DNA from: an uncultured Pseudomonas sp.
GTDB taxonomy: Bacteria > Pseudomonadota > Gammaproteobacteria > Pseudomonadales > Pseudomonadaceae
Assembly: GCA_966210885.1 (NCBI GenBank)
Contig: CBIHLQ010000004.1
Coordinates: 13,620 to 77,619, forward strand
DNA: 64,000 nt
Direction of reading: 5' to 3'
The translations under genes and the position numbers were made by a program. Shown here one piece after another: positions 11,698-16,755 of the stretch; the first letter of the stretch is position 1, and every line of letters begins with the position of its first letter. A model generated the notes under the pieces. It made no database searches. It had not been told where the DNA came from and worked only from the letters and a program-made list of their open reading frames with translations.

Positions 11698-11786
11698 GTC
11701 GACGGTCCCGCTGTCATGAGGCTTTAGGGCCCTTTAGACCGGTGACTTTGCGTCTCCGCCTTTCGACGGGTTTGCCTTTATCGCAC
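11698..11786 (-). ncRNA. c-di-GMP-I (GEMM-I) riboswitch aptamer upstream of the pilin operon
   Basis: Minus strand reads GUGCGAUAAAGGCAAACCCGUCGAAAGGCGGAGACGCAAAGUCACCGGUCUAAAGGGCCCUAAAGCCUCAUGACAGCGGGACCGUCGAC. It has GGCAAAC, a P2 stem with GAAA tetraloop, GACGCAAAG, a UCUAA..AUGA tetraloop receptor and P1 GU(g)CGAU/GUCGAC. Confidence 0.9.
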
Positions 11787-12679: not shown

Positions 12680-13105
12680 ATGGACAGCCAAGAGAGCAGC
12701 CGGATAGCCGCTCCGCTGGCGCGCTGTCTCGGAGAGCATGCGGATGCCATGCAGATCGCCGATGCGATTGTTGTCGTGTGGAGTGAAATTGATAGCGCCC
12801 TGGCGCCGATTATCGGGCACGGGGGGGTGATTGCGCTGTGCAAGCGCAGCCTTTATCTCGCCGCCCAGCGACACGCCTGCCTGACTGACGCTTATGCAAG
12901 CATCCAGTCAGGGGGCGAGTTCACCGATTTTAAGCCAGTTATCGCGCAACAGACCGGCATCACTGTCTCCGTCGGCGATGAGGTTTTCCAACAGTTCAAT
13001 GGGTTGCTTGTGTCGTTGATCGGCAGCTCTCTCACCGAGCGATTGCTGCGCTCCGTGTGGGAAAACTCGTTGGCCGCGCCGCCCGCGCAGGAGCATTTGC
13101 CATGA
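12680..13105 (+). CDS. Small alpha-helical protein coupled to the KaiC-like ATPase, 141 aa
   Basis: MDSQESSRIAAPL start; stop overlaps the ATPase start (ATGA at 13102-13105). Confidence 0.7.
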   Translation: MDSQESSRIAAPLARCLGEHADAMQIADAIVVVWSEIDSALAPIIGHGGVIALCKRSLYLAAQRHACLTDAYASIQSGGEFTDFKPVIAQQTGITVSVGDEVFQQFNGLLVSLIGSSLTERLLRSVWENSLAAPPAQEHLP

Positions 13106-14562
13106 AAAAAGTAGCCATCAACTGTTTGTCTACTGGCATTGCGGGCCTGGATCGAGTCCTGGCCGGTGGGTTGCCGGAGCTTTCCTTCAATGTGATCGCC
13201 GGCGCCCCCGGCTGCGGTAAGACCACGCTGTCGCATCAACTCATGTTCGAAATGGTCAAGCACAATGCCCCAGCGCTGTATTTCACGGGATTGGGCGAGC
13301 CTCCGTTGAAAATGCTGCGTCACCAGCAGCAGTTCGATTTCTTCGACGACGAGAAGATCGGCCAGTCGATCCACTTTATCAACCTGACGGAGGATATCTT
13401 CGGCGGCGACCTCAAGTTGATGCTGCAGCGGATCGTCGACGAGGTACTAAGCCATCAACCCAAGCTGGTATTCGTCGACTCCTTCCGCGCTGCGGTGCAC
13501 TCCAACGAGGTGGAGCAACAGCCGAACAGCGATCTGCAGCAATTTATGCAGCAGCTCGGGCTATTGTTGACCAGTTGGCAGATCACCTCGTTCCTGATCG
13601 GCGAATACTTTTCCGAGGTCGGCAACAACCCAGTGTTCACGGTGGCCGATGGCTTGATCTGGCTACATAAGGACGTGCATCGCAACTCCTTGGTGCGCAA
13701 GTTGGAAGTCATGAAAATGCGCGGTCAGCCAGTCCTGCCGGGGCTACATACCTACCGACTCAGCTTGCATAAAGGCATCGAAGTATTCGCACCCTCCGAT
13801 AGCCTGGCGCTGCCTGAGTGCATCCGTCCCTCGGAGACTTCCCGCCTGGGGATGGGGGTGGAGCATCTGGACGAGATGCTCGGGGGCGGTTTGCCGAGTG
13901 GTTATGCGCTGTTGGTGGTAGGCCCTTCGGGGTCTGGCAAGTCGACTCTGGCCATGGCGTTCTTGGCCGAAGGCGTACGCAACGGCGAGACCGCGGTGAT
14001 TGCCAATTTCGATAAAAATCCCTATCTGTCGTGCAACCCAGCACTCGTCAATTTGTTGAACAGTGGACAGATCGGCGTGCTGTACAGCCTCGCCCCCGAT
14101 CTGTCGATCGATGAGATTGCGCTCAAGTTGGTCGACGAAATCCGCCGACTCAAGGCGACCCGCGTGGTGATCGATTCGCTATCGGGCCTCGAACTCTCCC
14201 TGGCCCCGACCTCCCGCGCGGACTTCCGCGAATCGCTGGCTCGCCTGACCAGGACCCTGTCCAACACCGGTGTCAGCGTGCTGTTGATCTCCGAACTCGA
14301 GGATAGCTATACCGAGTTGCGCTTAAGCCCTCACGACACCGCGTTCCTCGCCGACGCAATCATCATGCAGCGCTATATCGAAGTCGACAGCAGGCTGCTG
14401 CGGGTGATGGCGGTGGTCAAGGTTCGGGGCAGCAAGCACTCCAATCAACTGCGTCAATTCACTATCGACGACGAGGGTATTCACCTGGGCGAACCCTTGA
14501 TAAATCAGGAAGGGTTGCTGGGTGGCCAGCCAACGGCAAATACCGGTAACGATTCGGCCTGA
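13102..14562 (+). CDS. KaiC-like double-domain RecA-superfamily ATPase, 486 aa
   Basis: Two Walker A motifs (GAPGCGKT, GPSGSGKS), Walker B motifs (VFVDS, VVIDS), KMRG and KVRG arginine fingers; GGAG RBS. Confidence 0.92.
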   Translation: MKKVAINCLSTGIAGLDRVLAGGLPELSFNVIAGAPGCGKTTLSHQLMFEMVKHNAPALYFTGLGEPPLKMLRHQQQFDFFDDEKIGQSIHFINLTEDIFGGDLKLMLQRIVDEVLSHQPKLVFVDSFRAAVHSNEVEQQPNSDLQQFMQQLGLLLTSWQITSFLIGEYFSEVGNNPVFTVADGLIWLHKDVHRNSLVRKLEVMKMRGQPVLPGLHTYRLSLHKGIEVFAPSDSLALPECIRPSETSRLGMGVEHLDEMLGGGLPSGYALLVVGPSGSGKSTLAMAFLAEGVRNGETAVIANFDKNPYLSCNPALVNLLNSGQIGVLYSLAPDLSIDEIALKLVDEIRRLKATRVVIDSLSGLELSLAPTSRADFRESLARLTRTLSNTGVSVLLISELEDSYTELRLSPHDTAFLADAIIMQRYIEVDSRLLRVMAVVKVRGSKHSNQLRQFTIDDEGIHLGEPLINQEGLLGGQPTANTGNDSA

Positions 14563-14591
14563 CGGGCGAGCGCCCTGGGGAGGCTTGTACT

Positions 14592-16181
14592 TTGAACAAA
14601 AAACGGGGCCGCGGCCCGGATACGGCCAAAGCTCGACCTGAATCGACGCCCGATCAACCGATCGAGTCGGTGTCGCAAAAGAAGTTGGACGAACTGAAGA
14701 AGCGTCTGGACGATAGCCATCCGTCGCCACTGGTGGAAGCCAACGAGCAGTTGGTGTTCGCCATGTTGCGCACCCAGATCAAGGCCGAGCAAGCCGAGCG
14801 CAAACTCCAGGAGGCTTTGCGCCTGGTCGAGCTGGACGCATTGACGGGCCTGCCGAACCGCGTGCTGTTTTTCGACCGTTTCACCCGTGCGATCGCCAAT
14901 GCCAAGCGGCATAACCAGCGTTTGGCGCTGTTGTTCCTCGACCTCAACAACTTCAAGCAAATCAACGACACCCTCGGCCATAGCGTGGGCGACGAGGTGC
15001 TCAAGCATGCGGCAAGGTGCTTCGTCTCCTCGGTGCGCGAGGCCGATACCGTCAGTCGTCTGGGCGGCGATGAGTTTTTGATCCTGCTCACGGAAGTTAC
15101 CCAGCCCGCCGATGCGACCTTGATCGCCAGAAAAGTCACGGCGGCGCTCGGCACGCCGAACCGTATCGGCGAGCACCTGTTGCGCCTGACCACCAGCATC
15201 GGCATCAGCATCTATCCCGACGATGGCGATACGCCCGACGAACTCGTCGAGCGCGCCGATGCCGCCATGTACCGGGCCAAGCGGCACGGGCTGGGCGGCT
15301 TCGTGTTTCACGGCGAGGCCAACGACAGCGAGCCGCTCGACCCGCCCGTCAGCTCGCTCAAGCGTCTGGTTACCCACTATGAGTTGTTACAGGCCGAGCA
15401 TGATCGGCACAGCTGCGACTTGTTGGAAGCCAACGAACAGTTGGTCCTGGCCGCCCTGACCGCACAGGCCCTGCAAGCCGAGGCGGAACAGGCGGAGCGC
15501 CGGCAAAAGGACGCCCTGACTCTGCTCACGCATGAAGTGCGCACGGCCTTGACGCCGATCCGCATGGTCGCGGAATTGTTAAGTCGCCCTAGCCAGCACG
15601 TGCCACTGCGCTTGCAACAGGTTTTCGAACGCAAGGTAAGCCATCTGTACCGCGTGCTGGACGACCTGCTGCATATCTCGCGCGCTAGCGTCGCCAAGTT
15701 GAAGCTCGAGCGGCAAACGGTCGATTTGAACCATATCGTCGAATCGGTGGTGCAAACCTGGCGGCCGGAGATGGACAGTCGAACACAGCGTTTTGAACTG
15801 CGGATGCCGCAACAGGCACTGTTGTTGGAAGGCGACCCGATGAGGCTGGAACAGATTTTCGACAACCTGCTCGGCAACGCCTGCCAATACACCCCGGCGG
15901 GCGGACAGATCGCGCTGACCGCGAAGTGCGAAGGCGATACCGTCGTCATCACGATCAACGACAGTGGCGTCGGCATCGATACCGAACTGTTGCCGAACAT
16001 CTTCGAGCCGTTCGTGCAGACGCCCGGCGCCATCGACTTCGACAGCGGCGGTTTGGGCATCGGGCTCACGGTGGTGCGCGAACTGGTCCTGGCCCACGGC
16101 GGCGAGGTCGCCGCCAGCAGTGCTGGCCCCGGTCTCGGTAGCCAGTTCGTGGTCAAACTGCCTCTGCTCGGGCAATCTTAA
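14592..16181 (+). CDS. GGDEF diguanylate cyclase - HisKA - HATPase_c fusion protein, 529 aa
   Basis: DALTGLPNR, DLNNFKQINDTLGHSVGD, READ I-site plus RLGGDEF; THEVRT H-box, NLLGNA N-box, DSGVGI, IFEPF, GLGIGL. Start codon (TTG) uncertain. Confidence 0.88.
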   Translation: MNKKRGRGPDTAKARPESTPDQPIESVSQKKLDELKKRLDDSHPSPLVEANEQLVFAMLRTQIKAEQAERKLQEALRLVELDALTGLPNRVLFFDRFTRAIANAKRHNQRLALLFLDLNNFKQINDTLGHSVGDEVLKHAARCFVSSVREADTVSRLGGDEFLILLTEVTQPADATLIARKVTAALGTPNRIGEHLLRLTTSIGISIYPDDGDTPDELVERADAAMYRAKRHGLGGFVFHGEANDSEPLDPPVSSLKRLVTHYELLQAEHDRHSCDLLEANEQLVLAALTAQALQAEAEQAERRQKDALTLLTHEVRTALTPIRMVAELLSRPSQHVPLRLQQVFERKVSHLYRVLDDLLHISRASVAKLKLERQTVDLNHIVESVVQTWRPEMDSRTQRFELRMPQQALLLEGDPMRLEQIFDNLLGNACQYTPAGGQIALTAKCEGDTVVITINDSGVGIDTELLPNIFEPFVQTPGAIDFDSGGLGIGLTVVRELVLAHGGEVAASSAGPGLGSQFVVKLPLLGQS

Positions 16182-16233: not shown

Positions 16234-16755
16234 ATGCCAGCCCTACTCCGCGCGCTTGAAGGCGACATTACCCGGCTGCGGGTGCACGCTATCGTCAACG
16301 CGGCGAACAGCTCGCTGCTCGGCGGCGGTGGGGTCGATGGCGCGATCCACCGCGCCGCCGGCCCGCAATTGCTCGAAGAATGCCGGCGCCTTGGCGGTTG
16401 CAAAACCGGCGAGGCCAAGCTGACCCGCGGCTATCGGCTGCCTGCCGACTACGTCATCCATACGGTCGGGCCGGTTTGGCGGGGCGGCGATCACGGCGAA
16501 GCCTCCTTGCTGGCGTCCTGTTACCGGCGCTCGCTGGAGCTTGCCGCCGAGCACGGCATCCGCAGTCTGGCCTTCCCCTGTATAGCTACAGGTGTTTATG
16601 GCTACCCCAACGAACTGGCGGCGCAGGTCGCGGTAACCACGGTACAAGCCGCGCTGCAACAGCTTGTCAGCCTCGAGGAGCTGATCTTCTGCTGTTTTTC
16701 GGCCCATGATCTGCGGCTCTATCAGAGGCTTCTCCGAGAGATGCCGAGCCATTAA
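16234..16755 (+). CDS. ymdB: Macro domain O-acetyl-ADP-ribose deacetylase (YmdB-like)
   Basis: [51 protein letters not shown]. Confidence 0.93.

Follow-up and report, generated by a model that had tools for sequence, protein, structure and literature searches.

A conserved helix motif precedes each output domain of a GGDEF-histidine kinase fusion protein encoded beside a KaiC-like ATPase gene in Pseudomonas

The DNA analyzed here (the window) is a stretch of 64,000 nucleotides (nt) of contig CBIHLQ010000004.1 from an uncultured Pseudomonas sp. (assembly GCA_966210885.1). On its forward strand, at 12683-16181, we found three tightly packed genes coding for a small protein of 140 amino acids (aa), a KaiC-like ATPase, and a protein in which a GGDEF domain is fused to a histidine kinase (HK). 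We describe a helix motif that occurs twice in the fusion protein, once before each output domain, and its relation to the two genes situated upstream.

The gene of the small all-alpha protein (12683-13105, forward strand) comes first, and its stop codon overlaps the start codon of the next gene (ATGA). The second gene (13102-14562, forward strand) encodes a double-domain KaiC-like ATPase matched by PF06745 in two stretches (E-value 3.7e-63). The third gene (14592-16181, forward strand), which the Pfam matches define as a GGDEF-HisKA-HATPase_c fusion of 529 aa, has a TTG start. The gap of 29 nt that separates it from the KaiC-like gene contains a ribosome-binding site, GGGGAGG, 7 nt upstream of this start. 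The downstream neighbor (16234-16755) codes for a Macro-domain protein, and the Pfam scan showed no response regulator adjoining the fusion gene at this locus. The latter agrees with an earlier description of the same DNA, made from the sequence alone (the first-pass annotation), which had stated that no cognate response regulator is adjacent.

At the threshold of E<=0.01, the GGDEF, HisKA, and HATPase_c families were the sole Pfam matches in the fusion protein. The GGDEF domain covers aa 81-240 (14832-15311, forward strand; PF00990 at aa 81-233, E = 1e-49). The histidine kinase core (15510-16166, forward strand) consists of HisKA at aa 307-365 (PF00512, 2.4e-6; 27.9 bits, with a cut-off of 26.9) and HATPase_c at aa 414-525 (PF02518, 4.8e-26). 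We detected no PAS, REC, or HAMP domain and no transmembrane (TM) segment, as the first-pass annotation had said for TM, PAS, and REC; the HAMP family (PF00672) likewise had no match in P0139 and P0171, two variants in which a pair of helices precedes the kinase core. Pfam gave no match before aa 81, and AlphaFold2 (AF2) modeled the first 80 residues as helices and disorder only. The protein had been called sensor-less, which holds in cis only; in trans, its likely inputs are the ATPase and the 140-aa protein, which is conserved.

More than 100 full-length homologues (51-84% identity) were found, belonging to Pseudomonas, Xanthomonadales, Burkholderiales, and Rhodocyclales; the conservation figures refer to 111 of these sequences. 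The GGDEF active site (aa 158-162) is intact, with G159, D160, E161, and F162 invariant, and D117, N125, and D126 of the cyclase domain, checked as residues for binding metal and substrate, are invariant as well. An RxxD I-site is present (R149-E-A-D152, followed by TVSRL and then by GGDEF), where D152 is invariant and R149 is conserved in at least 90% of sequences. In the kinase, the phospho-accepting histidine is H314 (codon 15531-15533), located within the H-box THEVRTALTPI. The N, G1, F, and G2 boxes are present, with N425, N429, D457, G459, G461, F471, G487, G489, and G491 conserved. Both domains keep the sequence motifs of their families. It had been noticed earlier that the H-box reads RTAL rather than RxPL, and we see the same. 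The family consensus is AHELRNPLTPI, and alanine replaces the usual proline after the histidine (RNPL) in just 8 of the 111 homologues, so this H-box is a quirk of the lineage.

Each of the two output domains is preceded by a copy of the same motif, with the pattern L-x-EANEQLV-x-A-x-L (consensus L-x-EANEQLVLAAL-x-AQ). The first copy, LVEANEQLVFAMLRTQIKAEQAER, occupies aa 47-70 (14730-14801) and belongs to helix 1 (aa 47-80, 14730-14831, forward strand), with EANEQLV at aa 49-55. The second copy, LLEANEQLVLAALTAQALQAEAEQAER, occupies aa 277-303 (15420-15500) and is a part of the long predicted helix at aa 254-330 (15351-15581, forward strand) that enters the first DHp helix. For a hidden Markov model (HMM) of the motif, with 30 positions, we took the two copies from each of 20 homologues. 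This HMM matched helix 1 with an E-value of 8e-13 and helix 2 with 2e-9; every other open reading frame (ORF) of the genome had an E-value of at least 0.41. With the next-best ORF at this level, the repeat is far beyond chance, and the earlier claim that similar helices stand before GGDEF and before HisKA was correct.

The motif is strongly conserved. In helix 1, N51 is invariant, while L47, E49, A50, E52, L54, and L59 are conserved in at least 90% of the sequences. In helix 2, L284 is invariant, and the same level of at least 90% is reached by E279, A280, N281, A288, L289, A291, Q292, and L294. The core residues of the motif carry about 4 bits per position, equal to the catalytic residues. 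The two copies had also been described as alike in DNA. This likeness is real, but it carries no information beyond the protein: at the shared residues, 7 of 13 codons are identical, compared to 6.1 expected from the codon usage of the genome (P = 0.41). The DNA likeness is therefore explained by shared amino acids and codon bias, and we rejected a recent duplication or gene conversion of the helix. The repeat is of ancient origin and has been maintained at the level of the protein.

In the AF2 model, made from the alignment of the 111 sequences, helix 46-80 runs directly into the GGDEF domain, and a single helix of 77 residues (254-330) joins helix 2 to the His314-bearing DHp helix 1; disorder is predicted for residues 243-259. 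The monomer model has an overall predicted local distance difference test score (pLDDT) of 74.6 and a predicted template modeling score (pTM) of 0.38, so that neither the domain arrangement nor a contact between helix 1 and helix 2 is settled by it. We observed that the distances between the motif and the output domains hardly vary among the motif-bearing proteins retrieved. The invariant asparagine is followed by the D-x-LT start of the GGDEF domain at 31 residues in 177 of 181 cases, and by the phospho-histidine at 33 residues in 171 helices. In the window protein, the respective pairs are N51 and D82 (31 residues) and N281 and H314 (33 residues).

The best heptad reading of helix 1 would place L47(d), N51(a), L54(d), M58(a), and A61(d) in a coiled-coil core, and helix 2 would likewise have L277(d), N281(a), L284(d), A288(a), and A291(d). 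In leucine zippers of the GCN4 type, a buried asparagine at position 'a' specifies an in-register parallel dimer. The motif resembles such a zipper in the order L(d)-xxx-N(a)-xx-L(d) with the invariant asparagine, which would be an analogy of mechanism without homology. Unlike GCN4, the coil of the motif is fused to enzymes.

It is conceivable, though we think it unlikely, that the motif is a structural zipper and nothing more, i.e., a coil that dimerizes and sets the register for the GGDEF and DHp geometry, binds no partner, and is conserved by common ancestry. The pattern with asparagine at 'a', typical of dimer-specifying zippers, fits this explanation, as does the fixed spacing to both domains. 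It does not account as well for E49, E52, Q53, V55, L56, L59, and the corresponding positions of helix 2, which in the heptad reading fall outside of the core and are as conserved as the core itself.

Domain architectures were counted in the best 150 of the 225 cluster representatives that carried the motif. With h for helix, G for GGDEF, and K for the kinase core, we found 46 cases of hGhK, plus fragments, 26 of hhK, and 13 of hK. Besides these, P0266 has the order helix-HisKA-HATPase-REC-helix-GGDEF, P0230 and P0182 have helix-GGDEF-helix-PAS-HK-REC, and the locus G216 has a separate helix-GGDEF-EAL gene. In every architecture found, each output domain has its own helix, and in this sense the suggestion of the first-pass annotation that the helix is a shared module holds true. 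In P0266, the copy next to the kinase has the helix-2 signature '...AQEL...QRQQ', and the one next to GGDEF is similar to helix 1, so that the helix subtype follows the domain and not the position. The motif also stands on a different HisKA subtype in P0214 and behind REC in P0266, in both cases inside KaiC operons, a survival that speaks against a purely structural zipper.

The hhK proteins are informative with respect to the history of the fusion. The tree of kinase cores interleaves hhK and hGhK, with well-supported branches forcing at least about 10 changes, and the hhK linkers retain remnants of the GGDEF flanks ('DALT' and 'SLQRPxTHYE..AEHERR'). We conclude from the tree and the remnants that the GGDEF domain was deleted repeatedly, with both helices fully conserved. 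In the clade as sampled, the ancestral form seems to be the fused one, with GGDEF lost at least about 10 times. Helix 1, remaining intact after such a loss, does more than hold the cyclase, which is another point against a zipper without a partner. The repeated clean losses of GGDEF could serve as natural controls.

An unfused operon was observed at G216 (L094, 5024-10695), with the order small protein, KaiC, [coil-helix-HK-REC], [coil-helix-GGDEF-EAL], i.e., with two output genes. The N-terminal coil-plus-helix modules of the two output proteins are paralogous; the kinase reading frame has a single break, situated between helix and HisKA, which is due to an error of the assembly or to a genuine frameshift. 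The first-pass annotation had supposed that the window protein may record a fusion of two genes. Given the unfused state at G216, such an origin is plausible; still, in the sampled clade it is the fused form that looks ancestral.

The same motif on both outputs could also mean that helices 1 and 2 bind each other, within one chain or between proteins as at G216, in a four-helix bundle that couples the outputs physically, in place of an input from outside. The unusually wide hydrophobic face of the motif, LVLAAL, would suit a bundle, the hhK proteins retain the two helices in tandem, and the G216 operon has two separate helix-bearing proteins. We consider this pairing quite improbable, given that complete kinases with a single helix exist in KaiC operons (P0214 and L016 from Ramlibacter), linker length in the hhK proteins ranges between about 15 and 100 residues, and AF2 gave no confident inter-helix arrangement at the pTM of 0.38.

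The motif turned out to be rare. In the 5.66-Mb genome of the window, the fusion protein alone had it; it was found in 2 of 41 related genomes, in 2 of 400 genomes sampled across the class, and in 225 of 1.84 billion cluster representatives. A generic signalling helix was rejected on the grounds of the single protein in the own genome and of the 225 representatives.

To compare gene contexts, we used generic patterns for GGDEF and HATPase to retrieve 80 loci; 9 of them had the helix and 71 did not, and the upstream sequence was available for 7 of the 9. A KaiC-like gene was situated directly upstream in all 7 evaluable helix loci, compared to only 1 of the 71 helix-less loci (Fisher p = 3e-9). 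It was likewise directly upstream in G015, P0266, P0230, P0214, and G216. Some KaiC homologue was present in 18 of the 41 relatives, with the KaiC subgroup of the window (64-100% identity) only in G000 and G015, exactly the two relatives that have the motif; no motif was found in the 16 related genomes with other KaiC types. Thus, the motif is restricted to one KaiC-like subgroup and occurs almost only beside it. The check proposed by the first-pass annotation, co-occurrence of a motif HMM with KaiC-like genes, has returned a strong enrichment, and the claimed association with KaiC needs to be narrowed to that subgroup.

The genome has a second KaiC system (contig C14, 99312-102655), where a KaiC homologue, 29% identical to that of the window, sits between a PAS-HK and a single-domain REC. 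The EANEQLV helix was not found in this system. With the 16 genomes having other KaiC types also being devoid of the motif, we rejected the idea that the helix is common to all KaiC-linked kinases. The presence of two KaiC systems in one genome makes cross-talk possible.

A distant GGDEF-HK relative was seen in a metagenome-assembled genome (MAG) of Gemmatimonadaceae (L013, 5737-7449), with no KaiC within 6 kb. It has the spacings of 31 and 33 residues, but a drifted motif (EVSELLAV; AANARLELDLL) and ATP-binding boxes of the kinase that look degenerate. That a KaiC-less protein keeps the spacing and the core asparagine of helix 2 speaks for the structural zipper; its exposed residues have drifted, which speaks against it, though this is a single case (n = 1) of a protein that is diverging generally.

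The KaiC-like protein has one Walker A motif in each RecA-like domain, GAPGCGKT and GPSGSGKS. In the full-length alignment to the solved KaiC structure 8zn5, the positions of S431/T432 read A-F, and the catalytic glutamate pairs, EE in 8zn5, read GE in CI and DK in CII. The scores of the protein against the NCBIfam KaiC equivalogs were below their cut-offs. From these residues, the ATPase would be unable to run a phosphorylation clock.

The protein fits the 'group II' described by Terrettaz et al. (bioRxiv 10.1101/2022.01.26.477890). According to that preprint, the group II KaiC proteins of Pseudomonas have no phosphorylatable residues at S431/T432, are related to Xanthomonadales proteins, are associated solely with a histidine kinase, and co-occur in a genome with KaiC of another group. 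The operon of the window is similar in all these respects: phosphosites are absent, the closest relatives of the KaiC-like protein occur in Xanthomonadales, the kinase gene is next, and the second KaiC of the genome fits the published co-occurrence with another group. Contexts of kaiC with HK and with GGDEF/EAL genes are described by De Luca et al. 2011 (PMC3164672). In the passages of these papers that we consulted, the neighbor is described merely as a histidine kinase, and the GGDEF fusion, the duplicated helix, and the small protein are not mentioned. A literature search with the motif strings returned nothing relevant, and the literature on KaiC homologues that we consulted gave no account of the motif, its duplication on every output domain, the small protein, or a partnership between group II and a GGDEF-HK fusion. 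As far as these sources go, the association of KaiC and kinase has already been published, while the motif on every output domain, the GGDEF-HK fusion, and the small partner are seemingly new.

Cyanobacterial SasA docks on KaiC through an N-terminal KaiB-like domain with a thioredoxin fold. The first-pass annotation had seen in the repeated helix a docking site for the KaiC-like hexamer, in the role of this domain of SasA, with both outputs reading the nucleotide state of the ring. The strict adjacency to and co-occurrence with one KaiC subgroup favor such docking, as does an output protein devoid of a globular input domain. We regard it as somewhat unlikely, even though the Terrettaz et al. 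preprint reports, from two-hybrid and co-immunoprecipitation (co-IP) experiments, that KaiC proteins of groups I and III of Pseudomonas bind the neighboring kinases; there, it was a PAS domain and not a helix that was sufficient for KaiC binding (bioRxiv 10.1101/2022.01.26.477890). Furthermore, the small protein is as constant a neighbor as KaiC, and it is to the small protein that a helix-GGDEF unit is fused in a Halomonas genome with no double-domain KaiC.

This fusion, observed in Halomonas sp. PR-M31 (L015, 5542-6645), is a natural one that joins the small protein, the helix QANERLLLAALRAEK, and a GGDEF domain. The copy of the small protein is complete, and the spacing between helix and GGDEF is also 31 residues. 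We found no double-domain KaiC homologue in the 3.8-Mb assembly.

The small protein had no match to a Pfam, NCBIfam, or PADLOC family. Its homologues, 179 in number and about 142 aa long, are all without a name, and one of them is encoded upstream of the KaiC-like gene in most of the related loci examined. AF2 gave a confident all-alpha model with seven helices (pLDDT 82, pTM 0.77). The Foldseek search of this model against the Protein Data Bank (PDB) returned no match (best E-value 0.8), and the modeled structure may represent an orphan fold. An analogue of KaiA or KaiB by fold, the candidate considered for the small protein, received no support in the same search. Because of the Halomonas fusion and of its constant presence, the small protein is at least as good a candidate for the partner of the helix as KaiC.

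Taking these observations together, we consider it reasonably probable that the motif is a subgroup-specific signalling (stalk) helix, a coiled coil that receives input in trans from the small protein, from the KaiC-like ring, or from both. What we infer here is the register of the coil, its partner in trans, and the direction in which control runs. Each copy would most likely form a parallel, in-register dimeric coiled coil, with the invariant asparagine at a core 'a' position, as is Asn16 in GCN4. The coil would continue unbroken into the output, from helix 1 into the GGDEF domain and from helix 2 into the DHp helix with His314, so that a change in its packing or register would be passed straight on to the kinase and to the pair of cyclase domains. 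The conserved non-core residues (E49, E52, Q53, V55, L56, L59, and the equivalents) would most likely present the binding surface for the input, coming from the 140-aa protein or the non-phosphorylating KaiC-like ring, or from the two in complex. Both c-di-GMP synthesis and phosphotransfer could thus answer to one input. The structural zipper and the helix-helix pairing are possible but fit less well than this trans-input coil, because positions outside the core are conserved, helix 1 outlasts the loss of GGDEF, and KaiC operons include complete single-helix kinases.

A more specific proposal, which we hold as tentative, is that the motif is the receiver element of a KaiC output route not described before. 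The non-phosphorylating KaiC-like ring and the 140-aa protein, acting as an adaptor with an orphan fold, would bind the helix on every output domain and turn the state of the ATPase into c-di-GMP synthesis and phosphotransfer, with neither a KaiB-like nor a SasA-like fold.

Several points weigh against the trans-input coil. The Halomonas fusion in an assembly with no double-domain KaiC argues that KaiC is not always needed or is not the only partner. A second fusion, P0259, known from a single metagenome contig, also comes without KaiC; its small domain ends short of the last helix, so that a deletion is its likely origin, and a search with its residues 1-120 for further fusions of the small domain returned only P0259 itself. 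The AF2 model is that of a monomer, with moderate pLDDT of 56-77 in the helices and the pTM given above, while the coiled-coil state and register are putative, being read from the sequence pattern. Finally, the gene context comes from about 16 loci, out of 225 motif clusters.

The proposed arrangement is like SasA-KaiC in that a KaiC ring, and not a ligand-binding sensor domain within the kinase, would supply the histidine kinase with its input. Unlike in SasA, the N-terminal 80 residues of the window protein are helical, with no KaiB-like (thioredoxin-fold) domain seen by Pfam or AF2. The proposal also differs in that the KaiC-like partner would have no phosphorylation cycle and a diguanylate cyclase would be controlled as well.

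S-helices and coiled-coil stalks are known in GGDEF proteins and histidine kinases, for example, in WspR, in PleD, and in helices leading into DHp. The motif is like an S-helix in being a helical linker of fixed length, directly N-terminal to GGDEF or DHp, and presumably a parallel dimeric coiled coil. On the other hand, it has no ERT signature and no sensor domain upstream in cis, its conservation extends far beyond the heptad pattern, and it is restricted to one type of operon.

KaiC homologues are widespread outside cyanobacteria, and the route by which they pass on information is largely unknown. The system described here is a compact one of three genes, with a non-clock ATPase, sensor-less outputs, and a 30-residue motif marking every output domain. 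The motif shows exactly where mutations would be informative.

Two further candidates were rejected. An apparent natural fusion of KaiC with helix-GGDEF (P0246, metagenome contig L092) is located on a frameshift-ridden long-read contig and does not provide Rosetta-stone evidence. An anti-phage defence system was not supported either, as PADLOC matched no system and gave merely short matches at the P-loop level.

The operon family would link a KaiC-type ATPase to c-di-GMP signalling, and in the genome of the window, the operon is adjacent to a pilus operon controlled by a c-di-GMP riboswitch (11698-11786 in the window), which is divergent from the KaiC operon. The Rfam c-di-GMP riboswitch was found in none of 12 related loci. 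A conserved link between the two was thus rejected, and the juxtaposition is specific to this genome.

On the metagenome contig L090, the pair of the KaiC-like gene and the helix-GGDEF-helix-PAS-HK-REC gene (P0230) is situated between TraG/TraX-like genes and relaxase/ParB genes, flanks that place the pair on a conjugative element. This conjugative context, along with the patchy distribution of the motif (2 of 25 genomes of the genus), suggests horizontal spread.

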